Shown: one piece after another, positions 1 through 23,610 of the stretch
Layout of the letters: each line of letters opens with the position of its first letter
How positions within the stretch are numbered: the stretch's first letter is position 1
UHGV virus genome: UHGV-0285350
Origin: a virus
Strand: one strand, 5' to 3'
Length of the DNA: 44,975 nucleotides
Translations under genes and position numbers: made by a program
The notes under the pieces: generated by a model
The model's database searches: none
What the model was told of the DNA's origin: nothing
The model's input: only the letters and a program-made list of their open reading frames with translations

Positions 1-374
1 ATATCACCACCATCTTCTGTACTTATGACGCCGACACCTTAAGCAAAGATCCGGCAGATGGTCGTAAAGTGAAAGGTGTTATCCACTGGGTGAGCGCGGC
101 ACATGCGCTGCCGGTTGAAATCCGCTTGTACGATCGTCTGTTCAGCGTGCCGAACCCAGGTGCTGCGGATGATTTCCTGTCGGTGATTAACCCGGAATCG
201 CTGGTGATCAAACAGGGCTTTGCTGAACCGTCTCTGAAAGACGCGGTAGCGGGTAAAGCATTCCAGTTTGAGCGTGAAGGTTATTTCTGCCTCGACAGCC
301 GCCATTCTACGGCGGAAAAACCGGTATTTAACCGCACCGTTGGGCTGCGTGATACCTGGGCGAAGTTAGGTTAA
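1..374 (+). CDS. glnS: glutaminyl-tRNA synthetase, C-terminal fragment (5' end outside window)
   Basis: Translation ...[100 protein letters not shown] matches the conserved enterobacterial GlnS C-terminus as I recall it; frame open to window start, stop TAA 372-374. Confidence 0.9.
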
Positions 375-400: not shown

Positions 401-426
401 AACGCCGCTACTGCGGCGTTTTTTAC
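401..426. terminator. rho-independent hairpin terminator, usable in both directions (glnS on +, Dam-type gene on -)
   Basis: aacgccgc-tact-gcggcgtt stem-loop followed by tttttt on + strand; on - strand the same hairpin is followed by ctttttt after a 3-nt gap; lies between two convergent stop codons (374 and 423). Confidence 0.6.
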
Positions 427-1328
427 TTCATTATTGCAATTATATCGTTAGCAACTACACGTGTTGACGCCTTGCAGGAAACCGACCGTCTGGCTGCCAT
501 ATGATGTACTTTAAACCCGTTTCCTTCATATAGTTCACGGATGTTTGGCGCACCACTATTTGTTATCACTACCTTAGCGCCGCGCTGGTGGGCTTCCACC
601 AATAGAGATACCAGCCGTTTCTGTTCGTCGAAACGGAAGCTATTTCCTGAATAACTGGTAAACCCTTCTGTATCCGGCAGCGGTTCATACGGCGGATCGC
701 AAAAAATCACATCGCCTTCACCAGCCGCCTCGATGACGCCAGCAAAGTCACCTGATACAAAGGACGTGTTTTTGAGTACGTCATCAGCCAAAAATGCCTC
801 CATCTCTGCATGTGGGAAGTAGGGCGCTTTGTATTTGCCATACCCCACGTTGAACTCGCCATTTTGGTTGTACCGCGTTACGCCATTAAAACAGTGCCGA
901 TTAAGGTACAAAAAGGCGGCAGCATGATGTAGCTGGTCATACTTTCCTCTGTTAAATGCCTCACGCACTTCGAGGTAAGCGTCAGCGTTGTTGTAATTTT
1001 TGAAAAAACTATATGACAGCGTGACGAGCGAATGTCCTTCTCGCTGCAATGTCTGATAGAAGTTAATCAGGTCACCGTTAATATCATTAAGCAGGTTGTG
1101 GCGAAATCCTGCATTCGTAAATACGGAACCGCCACCAACGAATGGTTCTATTAACCGCTTACCGTGTGGTAGATGCTCAAGCACTGTAGGCAATTCTGAG
1201 AATTTACCACCTACCCATTTGAATATCGGACGCTCATATTCATCCGGAGTCCGAATGGTGCGCATATAGCTAATTTCAGCCATCGTATCCTGTTTTTTTA
1301 TGGCTATGCTTGCTATAGATTTACTCAT
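423..1328 (-). CDS. DNA adenine (N6) methyltransferase, Dam / D12 class
   Basis: Translation has FKWVGGK (Dam KWAGGK-type SAM motif) near N-terminus and DPPY catalytic motif; start placed at internal ATG (MSKSIAS...) preceded by AGGGGGTG SD; track ORF extends to 1424 but overlaps the upstream gene. Confidence 0.85.
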   Translation of the reverse strand: MSKSIASIAIKKQDTMAEISYMRTIRTPDEYERPIFKWVGGKFSELPTVLEHLPHGKRLIEPFVGGGSVFTNAGFRHNLLNDINGDLINFYQTLQREGHSLVTLSYSFFKNYNNADAYLEVREAFNRGKYDQLHHAAAFLYLNRHCFNGVTRYNQNGEFNVGYGKYKAPYFPHAEMEAFLADDVLKNTSFVSGDFAGVIEAAGEGDVIFCDPPYEPLPDTEGFTSYSGNSFRFDEQKRLVSLLVEAHQRGAKVVITNSGAPNIRELYEGNGFKVHHMAARRSVSCKASTRVVANDIIAIMK

Positions 1329-2001
1329 AGAGCACCCCCTTATTCGCTTCGAAAACTGCCTTTGCGAATCCATGTGGAGTAGCACTTCGAAAATTAGCCC
1401 TGTCAGGCCCTGGTGGCGCGGCATGGATTCTGTTATCTGGCTTGCCTAATGATTCGTCCATTAGGGCATCAGGCATGACAAAGCCCTGGCCGCTCCAGAG
1501 GCATGTTTTTTTGGTGTAGTTATCTTCCTGACAATATGCAGTGAAGAAGTAAGGGTGAAAGATGTGATCTGGCTTACGCCAGAATGTCGATATTTTGCTG
1601 ACCGGATTTTCAATCATGTACGGACAACCGATCATCTTTGCAATGTCATAACACTGCCAGACAACCTGCATTGCTTTGAACTGGAAAACCGGATCTTTAT
1701 TAGCCTTGTCCGAAAACCAGCGCGCGCCGGAAACAGCCAGGTCAGTACACGGTGGGAACCCGGCCAGAAACACGATGCGCTGCAAATTCTTACGGAGAAA
1801 AGCGTATACTTCATCGCTATCGATGATCGCACTAATACGCGTCAGAACGGCACCTGATTGCATCAGCTCGTCACTGGTCGATAAGTGCTGTGGATCGACG
1901 ATAGCGGCATCGACACCGTATTCCAGCCAGGGGGCAACCATTGCCCCCGTAAAATCACAAAGACTCACAACAAGCGGTCGGTTATTATCGTTCTGCTTCA
2001 C
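1321..2001 (-). CDS. short C5-cytosine-methyltransferase-like protein (motif IV PC and motif VI ENx present; no target-recognition domain; motif I degenerate)
   Basis: [15 protein letters not shown] resembles C5-MTase motif IV (GFPCQxFSxxG) with catalytic Pro-Cys; YMIENPVS resembles motif VI (ENV) about 40 aa later; only about 226 aa. Start uncertain (GTG near 2001 after GGAGG, or ATG near 1941); overlaps rdgC 3' end. Confidence 0.45.
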
Positions 2002-2890
2002 CGCCAATGGCCTCCACCAGCGCGTTAAACAGTGCAGATAATTCGCCCGTAAAGAGCACGAAATCAGCATCAAATCGTTGTGCTACATCCTCCCGGTCGA
2101 TATCGTCGTTCTGGTCATAGAGATCATCACAGAATGTCAGGGCTTTGATACTCATATCATCGTTGACTCTGAACGACGCGCGGTCCATCCAGTTAATTGC
2201 AACGGTCGTAGCTACTTTCCCCGCCTCAATGTGAGACATAATCTCGTCGGACTGTAGATCAACTTTGTTGCAGCGAACGGCACCACCATTATCGAGCAGA
2301 CCCTTTAATGTGGCGTCTTCACCTGCTGTAAATCCGGCAGGGAAGCCGTTTTTAAACCACTCGGTCATTGTAATTTCCAGCGGTTCGCGTGGTGTGAATG
2401 GAATGACAGGCAGGCTGCCGAGCGATTTTCGCAATAAAGCCAGCTGGTCCTCTGCCTTTTTGGCGCTGCTTGCCTCAACGAATACCAGATGGTTGCTGCG
2501 GTCGATCAGGATTTTGGCGAGTGATTTTCTCGTGAAAGCACGAGGAAGAAGAGAGTGAAGCACTTCATCCTTCAGCGAATCTTTTTCGGTCTTCTTCAGC
2601 TTTCTGTCTTGCTCTTCTTCAAGTGTCAGGATTTTTTTCTGTAACTCTTCTTTGAGCACTTGAGAAGGTAGGATTTTTTCCTCTCGTTTATGCTGTATCA
2701 GAAGAAAACCCTGGTATTCATGGGTGAGGTTGTCACCAAGAACGGAGGTCCAACCAGCTTTAGCCATATCCTGAGAACCGCATGGGGTAAACACAAACTT
2801 GCTAAGGGCTGCATTTACTTCTGCAGTATCCCAGCTAACTTCGCGTGAAAGACGATAGATGAAGATATTTTTGAAAGCGACTGATCTCAT
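1985..2890 (-). CDS. rdgC: recombination-associated protein RdgC homologue
   Basis: Full-length similarity to my recollection of enterobacterial RdgC ([14 protein letters not shown]..., [15 protein letters not shown]..., [58 protein letters not shown]); ATG preceded by GGTGAG SD. Confidence 0.85.
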
Positions 2891-2896
2891 GTCTCA

Positions 2897-2940
2897 CCAT
2901 TTGTGTTAGAAAATACATATTAATTATCTAACACAAATGG
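2897..2940. promoter_or_regulatory. perfect 14-bp inverted repeat (ccatttgtgttaga N16 tctaacacaaatgg) directly upstream of rdgC start; candidate operator
   Basis: Read directly from sequence; halves are exact reverse complements; contains the recurring TGTTAGAA/TTCTAACA motif; AT-rich stem so unlikely to be an intrinsic terminator. Confidence 0.4.
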
Positions 2941-2949
2941 GTGCATTTT

Positions 2950-3603
2950 CTATCCTTTCTTGAAATCGAAGTTGCCAGCAGTGGCCTGAAAGGTTCCTCC
3001 TGCCTTGAAAGCTATGTCTCCGTTAGCGGTGACAGCAATATTTTCCCCTTTAACATTGATGTTGTTGGTTGATTTGACGTTAACACTCCCTCCTGCATTC
3101 ACGATTACATCAGCCGGACCAATGATATATATCTGCCCGGACTCATTCATGCCAATCCTTGAGCCTGCTGCCGTATTGGCAATTTCATAGCCGCCACCAG
3201 CAGTTCGTACTTCAAGAATATTGTTGCGGTGAATAACGAAGTCTTTCGTTGCTGAGATTTGGGGGCGGGGAGGTGCTCCATCTACTTCCGGCGGCGTCCA
3301 GCCGTTGCCTTTGCCAGATGCTTCTGGTGCAACGTTTGGAATTCCTCCCGGTGCATCCTGAGCGGCACCAACTATCATTGGGCGTCTGGTGTCTATTCGA
3401 CCGTTAACATCTAAATAAGGAAACTCTACCCAGACCAGGTCACCTTTGACTGTGGGTACAAAAGCGTTTCCGATGGGTAACAGGTATTCCGCCCAGGGTA
3501 GATCGTCATCAGGAACGCCATTCCAGTCAGGTAAAACACGGACTTGAGCACGCATAAGCCCTGCCGGGTGCACAGTTCCAACAATTTGCGCTCTACGCTT
3601 CAT
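2950..3603 (-). CDS. gpV / gp5-type baseplate spike protein (OB-fold N-domain plus Gly/Asn-rich beta-helix-like C-region)
   Basis: N-terminus IVGTVHPAGLMRAQVRVLPDWNGVPDDDLPWAEYLLPIGNAFVPTVKGDLVWVEF fits the phage baseplate-assembly-V OB-fold pattern; C-terminal repeats (IVNAGGSVNVKSTNNINVKGENIAVTANGDIAFKAGG). Confidence 0.6.
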   Translation of the reverse strand: MKRRAQIVGTVHPAGLMRAQVRVLPDWNGVPDDDLPWAEYLLPIGNAFVPTVKGDLVWVEFPYLDVNGRIDTRRPMIVGAAQDAPGGIPNVAPEASGKGNGWTPPEVDGAPPRPQISATKDFVIHRNNILEVRTAGGGYEIANTAAGSRIGMNESGQIYIIGPADVIVNAGGSVNVKSTNNINVKGENIAVTANGDIAFKAGGTFQATAGNFDFKKG

Positions 3604-6674: not shown

Positions 6675-7013
6675 ATGAAACAGGCAACCAGAAAACCGAC
6701 GACCGTAGGTGATATCCTGCTGTACGAATACCTGGAGCCGTTAGAGCTGAAGATCAACGAGTTGGCAGAAATACTTCATGTTCATCGTAACACCGTAAGT
6801 GCTCTTGTTAATAATAATCGTAAGCTAACGATGGATATGGCATATCGCCTGGCAAAAGCATTCGATACTTCTGTAGATTTTTGGATTAATCTTCAGACCG
6901 CAGTAGACCTGTGGGAAGTCGAAAATGATATGCGCGTTCAGGAAGAGTTAAGTCGTATCAATACTGCTGAAAAATTTATTTCTCAGCGGAACCTGAATAA
7001 AAAAGCAGCCTGA
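6675..7013 (+). CDS. higA: antitoxin HigA (XRE-family HTH, VapI type)
   Basis: N-terminal HTH LAEILHVHRNTVSALVNNNRKLTMDMAYRLAKAFDTSVDFWINLQ typical of HigA/VapI antidote proteins; immediately downstream of higB. Confidence 0.8.
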   Translation: MKQATRKPTTVGDILLYEYLEPLELKINELAEILHVHRNTVSALVNNNRKLTMDMAYRLAKAFDTSVDFWINLQTAVDLWEVENDMRVQEELSRINTAEKFISQRNLNKKAA

Positions 7014-7069
7014 TATAGTAAAACACATACAAAAAGCCCACTTAGCAAGTGGGCTTTCCTTTGTAATTA

Positions 7070-7372
7070 ATGAACATTAAACCTATCCGTACAGAACAAG
7101 ATTATGAGGCCGCACTGCGTGCGGTCGAACCGATGTTCGATAACGAGGAGTACGAGAAAAAACATTACCCAATTGAGCCACCATCACCTATTGAGGCCAT
7201 TAAATTCCGTATGGAACAGCAAGGGCTGACCGTGAAGGATCTGGAACCGGCGATTGGTAAGTCAAATCGTGTTTACGAAGTGCTAAATGGGACACGAAAT
7301 TTGACGTTACCTATGATTCGCCGTTTACATTCCCAGTTTGGCATTCCTCTTGAAAGCTTGGTTGGTATTTGA
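7070..7372 (+). CDS. second HTH (XRE-type, C-terminal HTH) antitoxin-like regulator
   Basis: C-terminal LTVKDLEPAIGKSNRVYEVLNGTRNLTLPMIRRLHSQFGIPLESL resembles HigA-family antitoxins with C-terminal HTH; no cognate toxin directly upstream. Confidence 0.6.
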   Translation: MNIKPIRTEQDYEAALRAVEPMFDNEEYEKKHYPIEPPSPIEAIKFRMEQQGLTVKDLEPAIGKSNRVYEVLNGTRNLTLPMIRRLHSQFGIPLESLVGI

Positions 7373-7434
7373 GTTTGGCGGTCTGGATGACCGCTATTTT
7401 CATAAAATAGATATTAGAAATCACGGTAGTTTAT

Positions 7435-8163
7435 ATGAATACAGATTCATCAACAGAAAAATTGACTGAAAATGATCTAATCAAAGTATCTTTTGGAGAT
7501 GCCATAAAAGACAAGCTTTTTAATAAAGTGTTTGCATATATATTCATTTCTTTTCTAATTATTAATTGGAAAGATATACTAATATTGATGAAGTCAAAGG
7601 ATGATATCCTATATACTTTATCTGTAACATTTGTTGGAGGTAAGATTCCTCTAGTTTATGAAGGCGTTTTGTCTCCTTGGTTTTATCATTTTTGCTTGCC
7701 ATTTATTTTTGGAATTATTGCATCAATTGCAGCTCCGATTGTCACTCTTTGCGTATCAAAGCTAACAAGTAAAATATATACAGAGATAAGGTATTTGGAT
7801 GCCGACATGGATCAAAATAAAAGAAAGGCGTTGCAAATAAAAGAGACTGAAATAATAAAAAGTATTAATGATACACAATTCAACAAAAGAATTATGGATG
7901 AAAATAAAAATGAACTTGAGAGATTGCTTAGGCAGCAAAAAGAGATTATGGCGGCAATAAAATTATTATATGATGATGTTGGAGTTATCATTGAGCTTTT
8001 TAAAAGTAGAGGGGTTGGTATTGACTCCCCAGAAAAGTTATATGATTTTGTAATGGCAATAAAGAAGACTTCGCTTTATAATGGTGATCATGATTTTAAT
8101 AAATTGGTTGCTGATATTTCAAATTTATTTGATAAAACGGAAATTGATTTTTCAAAAAGATGA
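7435..8163 (+). CDS. hypothetical membrane protein (2 predicted TM helices plus Lys/Glu-rich coiled-coil tail) in strongly AT-rich DNA
   Basis: Hydrophobic segments VFAYIFISFLIINW and FYHFCLPFIFGIIASIAAPIVTLCV; region about 7380-8200 is markedly AT-rich relative to flanks. Confidence 0.6.
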   Translation: MNTDSSTEKLTENDLIKVSFGDAIKDKLFNKVFAYIFISFLIINWKDILILMKSKDDILYTLSVTFVGGKIPLVYEGVLSPWFYHFCLPFIFGIIASIAAPIVTLCVSKLTSKIYTEIRYLDADMDQNKRKALQIKETEIIKSINDTQFNKRIMDENKNELERLLRQQKEIMAAIKLLYDDVGVIIELFKSRGVGIDSPEKLYDFVMAIKKTSLYNGDHDFNKLVADISNLFDKTEIDFSKR

Positions 8164-12874: not shown

Positions 12875-13453
12875 CTAATTTATCAATTCAATCGCCATCT
12901 GATACAACGTCATTTCATCGGCATTGTGCCGCATGAAATCTGCTTTTCCGCCTATTTTTCCATCAGCATGAACAGGGACCAGCCAGGGATATTGTTCTCG
13001 GACCTCGGCTGGCGCTGCGTACTGGTGGTGCCATTTACACAAAGGGAGGACATATTTATGCGCGTTCTCTGCCGTTCTCCCGAAGATATGGTGCAGGGAT
13101 ACCACTGGGCTATGTTGCCCGTGAATATGGCAGGCAATGCAGGGGAGAGTACCGATAGCGGTCTGTATCCGGCGTTCATCGGCTGTGAGTGATCTGCCCT
13201 TCAGGCCGCGTGACGTGCGTGTTTTTTTGGACGGAGTGGATACAGCTTTCTCTTTTCTCCGCTGGTCATATTGCTTTGCTTTTTCAATTCTCTTTTGCCG
13301 ATATTCAGGCGATGCGGCTTTTTCTCTCGCTCGTTGCTGCTGGCGTTGAGCTTGTTGAAGGCGCTTTGCCCTTTGTTCCTCTCGCCAGGCTGGGTCAGCC
13401 AATTTTTGCATGGCTTTTTGTCTCTGTTTCTCCCAATAGCTCTGTTTCTGCAT
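12875..13453 (-). CDS. Ref-like (phage P1 recombination enhancement function) HNH-type nuclease with basic low-complexity N-terminal region
   Basis: N-terminal about 90 aa Arg/Lys/Gln-rich; C-terminal LPCIACHIHGQHSPVVSLHHIFGRTAENAHKYVLPLCKWHHQ has Cys/His spacing of an HNH zinc-finger nuclease; architecture matches P1 Ref as I recall it. Confidence 0.55.
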   Translation of the reverse strand: MQKQSYWEKQRQKAMQKLADPAWREEQRAKRLQQAQRQQQRAREKAASPEYRQKRIEKAKQYDQRRKEKAVSTPSKKTRTSRGLKGRSLTADERRIQTAIGTLPCIACHIHGQHSPVVSLHHIFGRTAENAHKYVLPLCKWHHQYAAPAEVREQYPWLVPVHADGKIGGKADFMRHNADEMTLYQMAIELIN

Positions 13454-13484: not shown

Positions 13485-13535
13485 CTATGATTGATCAAAA
13501 TAGTTAGATATTCAAAATTGATTTTCTAACACAAA
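13485..13535. promoter_or_regulatory. divergent control region with repeated TTCTA/TTAGA half-sites including TTTTCTAACA
   Basis: ttttcta...tagttagata...attttctaacacaaaac read from sequence between the leftward Ref-like gene and the rightward early operon. Confidence 0.35.
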
Positions 13536-21164: not shown

Positions 21165-21640
21165 CAAACAAAATTGACTATCAAAAACTTCGTGAAATCG
21201 CTGAAAAAACAAAAATTGCTGGTGAAGCACCTGTAATGCCTTTCGATCAGCGAATTAATGCGCTTAACGATTTTATGAAGCACTTTTCGCCAGATATCGC
21301 GTTGGCATTGTTGGATGAAGTTAAACGCCTAGAAGACACAAATATTGATTCTATATGCCGAATTGCAGAGATGGAGACGCGGGAAATAAAACCAGCAAAA
21401 GGCGAAGTTCTTGTCGTTGTATCTGGTTTTACTGGTTGCGGAAAAAGCGCCATTGCCGGGGAAATAGAAATCGCGATGAAGGCTATTGGTGTACCGGTTC
21501 AGTGGACTAATGGCGATGCAGAAAAGCGCATGACAGGAGCTGACTGGCTGACAGCAATTGAGATGTACAAACCAACAGTGCGCATCGTTGAAGTTAATGT
21601 GCCACGCGTCCCTGGCATTCGCATCAAAGGAGGTGAGTAA
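21161..21640 (+). CDS. hypothetical small P-loop protein
   Basis: VVVSGFTGCGKSAIA matches Walker A GxxxxGK[ST]; only 159 aa. Confidence 0.45.
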   Translation: MTNKIDYQKLREIAEKTKIAGEAPVMPFDQRINALNDFMKHFSPDIALALLDEVKRLEDTNIDSICRIAEMETREIKPAKGEVLVVVSGFTGCGKSAIAGEIEIAMKAIGVPVQWTNGDAEKRMTGADWLTAIEMYKPTVRIVEVNVPRVPGIRIKGGE

Positions 21641-21816
21641 TGCGTGTGGCATGTATCGGCTTGTTACCGTACCCGACTCGTTTTTGGGCTTCTGCGCTAA
21701 TTGCAAAGCCACATGTACTGATGGCTGACAACATCATCCCGGCACCAAATCGCCGCCATACCGGTATTGCAGCGGCACGACGTGCAGCAAAGAAACGCAG
21801 GAGAGCAAAGCGATGA
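21640..21816 (+). CDS. possible small Arg/Lys-rich protein (58 aa)
   Basis: ATG overlaps upstream stop (TAATG) and is preceded by AAAGGAGGTGA SD; stop overlaps next ATG; not in track (<60 aa). Confidence 0.45.
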   Translation: MRVACIGLLPYPTRFWASALIAKPHVLMADNIIPAPNRRHTGIAAARRAAKKRRRAKR

Positions 21817-21995
21817 AAAACCGTAAGGCAAAAATTCTGTTAGCTCGCAGAAACGGTGTTGGGGTCTGGCGATGGTTGAGGATTAGTAACAGACGAGTGA
21901 GGTTGACGGGGTGTTGCGGGGTGATGTTGCACAGCTGTTGCAAAAAGCCCAGCGCGGCGCAAAACCGCTGGAAGAATCACACTAACGCAAAGTAA
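21813..21995 (+). CDS. possible small Cys-rich basic protein (60 aa)
   Basis: ATGA overlap with upstream ORF; CCGVMLHSCC cluster. Confidence 0.35.
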   Translation: MKNRKAKILLARRNGVGVWRWLRISNRRVRLTGCCGVMLHSCCKKPSAAQNRWKNHTNAK

Positions 21996-22012: not shown

Positions 22013-22038
22013 ACAGACCAAAACATATGTTTTGGTCT
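22013..22038. promoter_or_regulatory. perfect 26-bp palindrome CAGACCAAAACAT|ATGTTTTGGTCTG, followed by a second CCAAAA-N6-TTTTGG repeat
   Basis: Read from sequence; exact dyad symmetry around AT|AT; sits between the early operon and the gemA region. Confidence 0.45.
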
Positions 22039-22062
22039 GCCAAAAGTAGTGTTTTGGTCATT

Positions 22063-23142: not shown

Positions 23143-23610
23143 ATGCAGACCTTCAGTGAAACAGATCTTCGCGATGCGCAGGCACTGCTGCCCGACTCCG
23201 TGCAGCAACTGATTAGCGTGATTGGCTTCCCCGCTCTGACCCGGTTGATTCGTTCTTTTGGTGGTGTGACGTTAAGTGGTAAAACCGGCGCACACGCCGA
23301 ACGCACCGGCGGTGTCCATGCCCTGTTACATGACGTGCTGACCGAAGACGAAATCAACAAACTGATCCGCTTTCTTGGCGGCGCACCGTTTTACATTCCC
23401 CGTTGCGATCATGCTTTACGTGCCCTGCGTAACACCCGTTTTATGGCTGATTTACAGCGGCATCTCAGGGACGGATTCTCACATCGGCAGGCGCTGGCAC
23501 AGCTTTGTCCCCGTTACGGGATTTCAGACCGGTACGCATGGCAACTGATACACCGACGACAAAAACAGACTTCGCTGAAAAGCCCCACCCAGGTGGGGCT
23601 TTTTGATTAA
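23143..23610 (+). CDS. Mor/C-family transcriptional activator of phage middle/late genes
   Basis: C-terminal HTH ...LAQLCPRYGISDRYAWQLIHRRQK typical of the Mu Mor/C family; cannot tell whether this is the Mor or the C equivalent. Confidence 0.7.
   Translation: MQTFSETDLRDAQALLPDSVQQLISVIGFPALTRLIRSFGGVTLSGKTGAHAERTGGVHALLHDVLTEDEINKLIRFLGGAPFYIPRCDHALRALRNTRFMADLQRHLRDGFSHRQALAQLCPRYGISDRYAWQLIHRRQKQTSLKSPTQVGLFD

Follow-up and report, generated by a model that had tools for sequence, protein, structure and literature searches.

Genes at the locus

The left end of the window (the whole stretch of 44,975 nucleotides of UHGV virus genome UHGV-0285350 that was analysed) carries three overlapping genes on the minus strand: rdgC (2890 to 1985), a small C5-cytosine methyltransferase-like gene (2001 to 1321, the middle gene) and dam (1328 to 423). 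The rdgC stop codon lies inside the middle reading frame, an overlap of 17 nt; the middle frame and dam overlap by 8 nt (ATGAGTAA). The middle gene opens with GTG, 9 nt downstream of GGAGG, and the dam ATG at 1328, which overlaps the upstream stop in this way, is preceded by AAGGGGG. Both the identities of the three genes and their stop/start overlaps had been called correctly in the original prediction. Upstream on the same strand sits the homologue of P1 baseplate gene 5 (2950 to 3603, minus strand), so named from the annotation of orf66 in Escherichia phage D6. The 3′ end of glnS (1 to 374, plus strand) converges on dam from the other side; the two are separated by a strong bidirectional intrinsic terminator (400 to 421), with a 9-bp stem of which six pairs are GC and with T-runs on both strands, which closes the unit. 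Between the genes of the trio, where separate promoters or terminators would have spoken against a common transcript, none that is convincing was seen. The one weak terminator-like match, at 1500 to 1484, is to be set against a scan background of 10 terminators found and 6.6 expected. Rfam models gave no match anywhere in the window. Judged from its sequence, the trio looks like a single operon.

The rdgC product (D6 orf65; 1985 to 2890, also named hrdC) is an RdgC-family DNA-binding protein. It matches PF04381 over its full length (E 6e-103), NF001462 at 386 bits (cutoff 330) and E. coli RdgC in the PDB (2owl) with E 3e-108. It is 59% identical in amino-acid sequence to K-12 RdgC and 52% to P1 HrdC, and on these values rdgC was not taken up from a host in recent times; that it might be a host gene carried here by rearrangement had been kept in view in the original prediction. 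To call RdgC normally chromosomal, as was done there, is an overstatement: E. coli has its own RdgC, and a homologue is encoded in 392 phage records.

The dam product (D6 orf63) is an orphan Dam-family N6-adenine DNA methyltransferase, matching PF02086 (E 2e-56; 192 bits, cutoff 22) and TIGR00571 (249 bits, cutoff 115). Its translation holds the DPPY catalytic motif (FCDPPYEP) and the FxGxG SAM-binding motif (EPFVGGGSVF). From its 67% identity to the C-terminal, Dam half of P1 Dmt and the match to E. coli Dam structures (E 2e-58), we infer that it methylates GATC. The densest GATC cluster of D6, five sites in about 140 bp, lies within the pacA homologue. P1 requires Dam methylation at pac, and the best documented role of its Dam is in licensing pac cleavage for packaging, not in anti-restriction (PMC12707154).

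The middle gene (D6 orf64, phrog_757; minus strand) encodes 226 amino acids, and the N-terminus of the protein agrees with those of its homologues in our alignment A1. No match was obtained in Pfam (including PF00145), NCBIfam or PADLOC. Searching the PDB by sequence and by profile gave chance matches only, and a fold search was therefore needed; it returned the fold of a C5-methyltransferase catalytic domain. The motif IV Pro-Cys (FPPC85TDLAVSG) and motif VI (E131-N-P-V) are invariant across 48 homologues. The target-recognition domain, expected between motifs VIII and IX, is absent, there being only about 30 residues from YTKKTCLW to RSATP. We also considered the protein as one part of a split orthologue of P1 Dmt, and rejected this since direct comparison revealed no similarity to the N-terminal half of Dmt. 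It might be that the protein makes no 5mC in DNA at all, being inactive, acting on RNA or some other substrate, or transferring a different group; we regard this as quite unlikely.

Genomic setting

From position 1 to 21.6 kb the window follows D6, a P1-like prophage that exists as a circular plasmid, with 98 to 99.8% identity; beyond about 21.6 kb it departs from D6. A search for a complete E. coli record that runs from the D6-like into the Mu-like part found none. Over the trio, nucleotide identity to D6 orf63 to orf65 is 99.8%. The same arrangement, glnS included, is present in 81 E. coli genomes, counting those in which 80% or more of the query is covered by one match; the top-listed matching records are all plasmid-sized replicons of 80 to 216 kb. 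The element is a plasmid prophage of the D6 type and does not end here as an integrated prophage would; within it, the operon lies between cargo glnS and the baseplate genes.

The original prediction had put the trio at the outermost edge of the element, where a prophage meets host DNA, and had seen in it a unit that protects against restriction and modulates host recombination; on this reading it would be expressed from the integrated prophage and built around a captured host rdgC. The trio does combine orphan methylases with RdgC, methylation is able to protect against restriction, and the glnS flank is 96 to 97% identical to chromosomal glnS (96% to that of K-12). However, this glnS is part of the D6 record (MF356679), where it is annotated as orf62, a glutaminyl-tRNA synthetase, and it lies on plasmid-sized replicons in the 81 E. 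coli genomes. The similarity to K-12 breaks off at position 370, the glnS stop codon; the chromosomal gene order past glnS (the chiZ/chiP context) is absent from the flank, and three relatives (L016, L018 and L019) carry the trio without glnS. Identity of RdgC to its host counterpart is only 59%, and the homologous operon of P1 is C1-repressed. The position at a prophage–host junction is refuted, and the reading as a whole is highly improbable. The flank belongs to the same mobile element as the trio; across positions 1 to 480 the window is 97.7% identical to D6, the glnS end being slightly more diverged there. We conclude that glnS is variable cargo of the phage-plasmid and not host chromosome. 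The element is a phage-plasmid, so there is no prophage–host boundary here.

The order baseplate genes, rdgC, dcm-like gene and dam is kept in relatives at only 45 to 63% protein identity, and the step from baseplate genes to rdgC is shared with L008, L016, L018 and L019. Tight coupling is not found everywhere: in L008, a more distant relative, a gap of 150 nt separates rdgC from the methylase gene. In none of the three non-P1-like phages checked did rdgC adjoin a methylase gene; descent, and not a joint function, may thus be what links the trio.

The inverted repeat and promoter upstream of rdgC

The perfect 14-bp inverted repeat that had been predicted ahead of the operon is real. Its arms lie at 2897 to 2910 and 2927 to 2940 and extend to 18 nt at 94%, and the 45-kb window holds no second perfect inverted repeat of 14 nt whose loop is 40 nt or shorter. 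The repeat (2897 to 2940) is made of two inverted operator-like half-sites, ATT(T/A)TCTAACACAAA, at 2914 to 2900 on the minus strand and 2923 to 2937 on the plus strand. The half-site ATTTTCTAACACAAA recurs at about 12 intergenic sites of D6 and is found upstream of c1, lpa, ref and the rdgC operon; with up to two mismatches allowed, there are seven matches in D6 against 0.45 in Markov simulations. A single exact copy (13521 to 13535, plus strand) sits in the ref/orf88 intergenic region, before the rightward orf88 operon and 68 nt upstream of the ref start, within the spacer of a promoter-like site (TTGATT-16-TAATAT). When five diverged loci were aligned (alignment A2), the rdgC-proximal half-site alone was invariant; L018 and L019 have lost the distal arm. 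A sigma-70-like promoter, TAGAAA-18-GATAAT (2923 to 2952, minus strand), which agrees with the consensus at 9 of 12 positions, overlaps the upstream operator arm. The relatives keep the −35-like TAGAAA together with a −10-like hexamer (GATAAT, TATTAT or AATAAT).

Because the half-site recurs and only its proximal copy is invariant, the repeat is best read as a candidate bivalent repressor operator, belonging to a dispersed D6 repressor regulon, and not as a hairpin. Its half-site bears a loose likeness to the P1 C1 operator ATTGCTCTAATAAATTT, the two having a TCTAA core in common. We rejected the half-site as a late-promoter (Lpa) motif, as D6 has separate elements of the P1 type, AAGTGACTT. 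We likewise rejected the repeat as a Rho-independent terminator: an AU-rich stem is followed by UGAGACAUG and not by a U-tract, an arm is lost in relatives, and the terminator scan did not call the repeat.

Alternatively, the repeat could act as an RNA hairpin with no protein operator involved, either terminating or stabilising the late baseplate transcript or occluding the rdgC ribosome-binding site. The predicted folding energy is −22.7 kcal/mol (z = −5.1 against shuffles), the 3′ arm takes in the GG of the GGUGAG Shine–Dalgarno sequence, and in L008 another perfect inverted repeat of 14 bp, different from this one, directly follows the gene 5 homologue. The stem, however, has no U-tract after it, and L018 and L019 retain one arm only, so that it is the half-site sequence and not the hairpin that is conserved. 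The half-site also occurs elsewhere as intergenic single copies, and a transcript from the predicted rdgC promoter would hold only one arm. A hairpin role appears unlikely.

Proposed expression and function

In the model that we propose, the sigma-70-like promoter upstream of rdgC would be covered by the two inverted 15-nt operator copies, and in the lysogen a C1-type repressor of D6 probably holds it off. Both the analogy with P1 and the operator-like repeat suggest that the lysogen probably keeps the operon repressed and does not express it. Upon induction or infection a single transcript would cover all three genes, from rdgC to dam, and would stop at the bidirectional terminator that separates dam from glnS; transcripts of the late baseplate operon upstream might also read through into the trio. 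Where stop and start codons overlap, translation could be coupled. Dam would methylate GATC and, as in P1, may license pac cleavage and packaging whatever the Dam status of the host. The small methylase may add 5mC, possibly at CCWGG like its Drexlerviridae homologue (below), a modification that would guard the DNA against enzymes that cut unmethylated sites. The RdgC homologue is expected to bind double-stranded DNA and could dampen RecA-dependent reactions on replicating phage DNA.

The linkage of RdgC, a C5 methylase and Dam across P1- and D6-type phage-plasmids could reflect a real functional unit, since it is kept although the C5 module has been replaced by an unrelated small DNMT3-like enzyme; we hold this to be very doubtful. 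If it were true, an RdgC ring might keep RecA or Ref off newly replicated phage DNA until the DNA carries both methyl marks. The small Dcm could, as a by-product, expose D6-type phage-plasmids to retron Ec86, and the 15-nt motif would define a previously unmapped D6 repressor regulon.

Comparison with known systems

The window RdgC is a full-length homologue of E. coli RdgC (PDB 2owl) and of equal length. Unlike the E. coli protein, it is encoded by a phage-plasmid and is predicted to be co-transcribed with methylases.

A studied relative of the middle protein is the small Dcm of Drexlerviridae (phage K42; KarlJaspers Bas06_0055), to which it is 37% identical over the full length. The catalytic residues C82, E128, K175 and K176 of the Drexlerviridae protein align with C85, E131, K164 and K165 here, and common to both are a DNMT3-like fold and the lack of a target-recognition domain. 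Their contexts differ: the Drexlerviridae gene lies in the early region of a lytic siphovirus, whereas the D6 gene stands beside dam and rdgC in an operon of a temperate phage-plasmid. The Drexlerviridae Dcm has been reported to form 5mC at CCWGG and to trigger retron Ec86 (bioRxiv 10.1101/2023.08.16.553469). The middle gene can now be tied to this experimentally studied family of small phage methylases.

From orf63 to orf65 of phage D6 (MF356679; Gilcrease and Casjens 2018) the trio does not differ in substance: the genes, their order, the overlaps, the inverted repeat and the neighbouring glnS are all the same. The trio is the already annotated RdgC/small cytosine methylase/Dam operon of D6, and is not new. 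The homologous P1 operon has been described since 2004. The value of the locus as a discovery is small, as GenBank already lists the genes for D6 and the P1 operon is known.

In the P1 record, uhr-hrdC-dmt is entered as a set of overlapping genes downstream of the promoter Pdmt and the C1 operator Odmt (Op68); a phage RdgC co-transcribed with methyltransferases is not new. There too an RdgC homologue precedes C5-type and Dam functions, in overlapping genes on one strand. In P1 the operator covers a sigma-70 promoter upstream; in the trio operator-like half-sites are predicted to lie over a promoter-like site. Most probably, the trio is the D6-type version of this C1-repressed early operon, carried by a circular plasmid prophage akin to P1. 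A CRISPRi screen of P1 found hrdC and dmt to be non-essential, and hrdC is dispensable for lytic growth (PMC10695390). The two operons also differ in several respects. P1 Dmt (PF00145 and PF02086; 754 amino acids) fuses a canonical C5 domain to Dam, whereas D6 has a separate small methylase without detectable sequence similarity to the P1 C5 domain. The P1 operon includes uhr, which is missing from the D6 trio. The D6 operator, predicted to be bivalent, differs in sequence from that of P1, and the operon has baseplate gene 5 as its neighbour in D6 but upfC in P1.

Gene organisation

The three overlapping leftward genes of the original prediction were located by ORF listing, translation and profile matches. 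rdgC (2890..1985, minus strand) encodes 301 aa that match PF04381 over the full length (E 6e-103), NF001462 (386 bits against a cutoff of 330) and PDB 2owl (E 3e-108). The methylase-like middle gene (2001..1321, minus strand; ORF frame listed as 2073..1321) encodes 226 aa from a GTG at 2001; this start is supported by GGAGG 9 nt upstream and by an N-terminus that coincides with those of homologues in the alignment. dam (1328..423, minus strand) encodes 301 aa from ATG 1328 and matches PF02086 (E 2e-56), TIGR00571 (above cutoff) and the E. coli Dam structures (E 2e-58). The middle gene overlaps rdgC by 17 nt and dam by 8 nt (ATGAGTAA). Scans for separate signals within the three genes gave a single weak terminator-like match and no promoter-like match. 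A bidirectional terminator with a 9-bp stem (400-421, both strands) lies downstream of dam. The perfect 14-bp inverted repeat upstream of rdgC is also present (2897-2910 / 2927-2940); it extends to 18 nt at 94% and is the sole perfect 14-nt short-loop inverted repeat in the window. With reading frames, overlaps, terminator and repeat confirmed, the observation is therefore real. We note that in locus L002 (6423-7262; RefSeq plasmid NZ_CP148392) PGAP labels the D6-type dam a pseudogene 'missing N-terminus' and places the start of the small methylase at an ATG within the gene, so that conserved motif I is cut off; both appear to be artefacts of annotation arising from comparison with fused P1 Dmt.

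Relationship to phage D6

Megablast matches 380-2960 to Escherichia phage D6 (MF356679; 99.8% identity, 100% of the query), a 91-kb circular P1-like plasmid prophage; D6 61213-82691 is collinear with window 1-21632. The genes are thus already known and annotated: orf65 as RdgC family, 'similar to P1 hrdC', orf64 as 'putative DNA-cytosine methylase' and orf63 as 'site-specific DNA-adenine methylase, similar to the C-terminal half of P1 dmt'. What we add is modest: a tie between orf64 and a studied small-Dcm family, the finding that the C5 module has been replaced non-orthologously in comparison with P1, and the prediction of an operator motif in D6.

The genes had been placed at a prophage-host boundary. 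The left flank (1-374, left of dam) is the 3′ end of glnS, D6 orf62; D6 carries the complete glutaminyl-tRNA synthetase gene, whose presence on the phage-plasmid is also noted in PMC6799933. Identity to K-12 glnS is 97% and ends exactly at the stop codon; chiZ and chiP, the downstream context in K-12, are absent. glnS is also absent from three diverged relative loci recovered via the middle protein (L016, L018 and L019), although these have the corresponding trio and the corresponding baseplate genes beside it. These observations argue that glnS is variable cargo and that no prophage-host boundary lies here; absence from the diverged loci indicates that this cargo inserted recently, with dam on one side and the partition genes on the other. 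The 3.7-kb region including the glnS end was found in 81 complete E. coli genomes, and among the best matches listed all records are plasmid-sized (80-216 kb). In L018, an IS605 OrfB / Cas12f-like TnpB gene (6836-7921) sits a few genes downstream of dam.

D6-like identity ends near 21.6 kb, beyond which the window is ~95% identical to a Mu-like chromosomal E. coli prophage. This part (21360-44975) encodes Mor, gp16, terminase, DUF935 portal, sheath, tape measure and DNA circularization protein, and holds two more perfect 12-nt palindromic repeats with 2-nt loops (22014-22039 and 23578-23603). An ead/Ea22-like stretch (~21360-21980) is common to both sources. Complete E. coli records crossing the junction were sought and none was found; the window is therefore either a phage-plasmid × prophage recombinant or an assembly chimera.

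The small methylase

The middle protein has no match in Pfam, NCBIfam, PADLOC or PDB sequence searches and is assigned to phrog_757. The family is very large (~7,900 of 8,000 scored candidates match, mostly 215-230 aa), and tblastn places it in 1,589 phage records, among them Tls 'dcm', Jersey-like and other phages. In a 48-member alignment FPPC85TDLAVSG, E131-N-P-V, D160-x-Y-x-K164-x-T and R205-S-A-T-P-x-G-F are invariant, and the protein is too short to accommodate a target-recognition domain. The protein is 37% identical over its full length (E 6e-41) to the 'Dcm-like C5 cytosine methyltransferase' of phage KarlJaspers, which is 95% identical to phage K42. A preprint on K42 (10.1101/2023.08.16.553469) compares its Dcm with DNMT3A and reports that the enzyme forms 5mC, detected by LC-MS, within a CCWGG site of the msDNA of retron Ec86 and sets off this retron's defence. 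Residues mutated in that work (C82, E128, K175 and K176) align with C85, E131, K164 and K165. This homology upholds the 'C5-like' label, and the middle protein most likely functions as a small DNA 5mC methylase.

The inverted repeat

The 59-nt spacer between the stop of the gene 5 homologue (2952-2950) and the rdgC ATG (2890) reads TAGAAAATGCACCCATTTGTGTTAGATAATTAATATGTATTTTCTAACACAAATGGTGAGACATG on the coding strand, and a promoter scan places a promoter-like TAGAAA-18-GATAAT at 2952-2923 (minus strand). Two inverted copies of a 15-nt half-site, ATTTTCTAACACAAA, make up the repeat. An exact further copy (13521-13535) lies in the interval that separates the ref homologue from a rightward operon, within the spacer of a TTGATT-16-TAATAT site. 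The D6 genome holds 7 matches with ≤2 mismatches, against 0.45 (maximum 2) over 60 Markov simulations. The core, TTCTAACA, is dispersed between genes in two flavours, TTTTCTAACACAAA and TTAGTTTTCTAACAT (window 12865, 13524, 18540; D6 199, 4628, 9075, 10324, 21269, 54210, 75980, 80731, 89948). Its matches fall almost only in intergenic DNA: upstream of c1, lpa, orf52 and the pdcB homologue, between icd and repL, flanking ref and next to cre. The set looks like the operators of a D6 repressor regulon. A role as Lpa late-promoter element was rejected, since D6 has separate P1-type late-promoter -22 elements (AAGTGACTT).

When the sequences upstream of rdgC in five loci are aligned, the half-site nearer to rdgC, ATTTTCTAACAC, does not vary and the -35-like and -10-like hexamers persist; the distal arm is retained in the closest relatives only and lost in L018 and L019. 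The repeat might instead act as an RNA hairpin, whose predicted stability is high (-22.7 kcal/mol, z = -5.1), but the hairpin lacks a U-tract and is not conserved. Together with the recurrence of the half-site, this suggests that the repeat probably serves the D6 C1-type repressor (orf1) as a bivalent operator overlapping the operon promoter. The homologue of P1 ref, a RecA-dependent endonuclease (12875-13453, minus strand), has a copy of this motif at a distance of 68 nt; the element thus carries two RecA-related functions, Ref and RdgC, that are putatively co-regulated.

Proposed function

By analogy with P1, the operon would be silent in a lysogen and expressed early once repression is lifted; transcription running on from the baseplate operon may also reach it. 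E. coli RdgC inhibits RecA reactions through dsDNA binding, and the phage protein would be expected to do likewise. Dam would supply GATC methylation. PMC12707154, citing Sternberg & Coulby 1990, states that P1 pac cleavage requires this methylation and that dmt is therefore essential in Dam- hosts. Across D6, GATC sites are most densely clustered inside the pacA homologue (5 sites in ~140 bp), consistent with such a role. The small Dcm would add 5mC. This 5mC could plausibly protect against restriction; in the BASEL study, however, methylases of this kind were not related in any simple way to resistance against restriction (PMC8594841). Both hrdC and dmt of P1 are induced in lytic growth (bioRxiv 10.64898/2025.12.28.696737) and were dispensable in a CRISPRi screen (PMC10695390).

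Comparison with P1 and other phages

Phage-borne RdgC is not novel: homologues occur in 392 phage records, and the P1 operon is annotated. In the P1 record uhr (65233-65517), hrdC (65510-66415) and dmt (66412-68676) overlap, run rightward and stand behind the sigma-70 promoter Pdmt and the monovalent C1 operator Odmt (Op68). C1 operators are annotated there ahead of several distinct operons (Odmt, Obanab, O26, Oppp), which the dispersal of the D6 motif resembles; the P1 operators (ATTGCTCTAATAAATTT) and the D6 motif have the TCTAA core alone in common. P1 c1, lpa and ref may themselves be under C1 control.

Methylases adjoining rdgC were not seen in the three phages checked outside the P1/D6-type group, where rdgC lies among recombination and replication genes. 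A more distant relative locus, L008 (85-kb contig), has an 87-aa weakly Uhr-like gene followed by rdgC (47% identical), the small methylase (63%) and dam (45%), downstream of gene 7-24-6-5 homologues as in D6. L008 also has a different perfect 14-bp inverted repeat (3412-3447; ATAATGCATCCATT / AATGGATGCATTAT) directly after the gene 5 homologue, and P1-operator-like AAAAATTAGTAT repeats further downstream, before the uhr-like gene. By sequence comparison the order RdgC-C5 methylase-Dam is old. P1 Dmt (754 aa) joins an N-terminal canonical C5-methylase domain (PF00145) to a C-terminal Dam domain (PF02086). The C-terminal half of Dmt shares 67% identity with window Dam, and HrdC shares 52% with window RdgC. 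Direct comparison found no similarity between the middle protein and the Dmt N-terminal half. These alignments indicate that D6 shares the functional order of P1, with a C5 module that is separate and non-orthologous.
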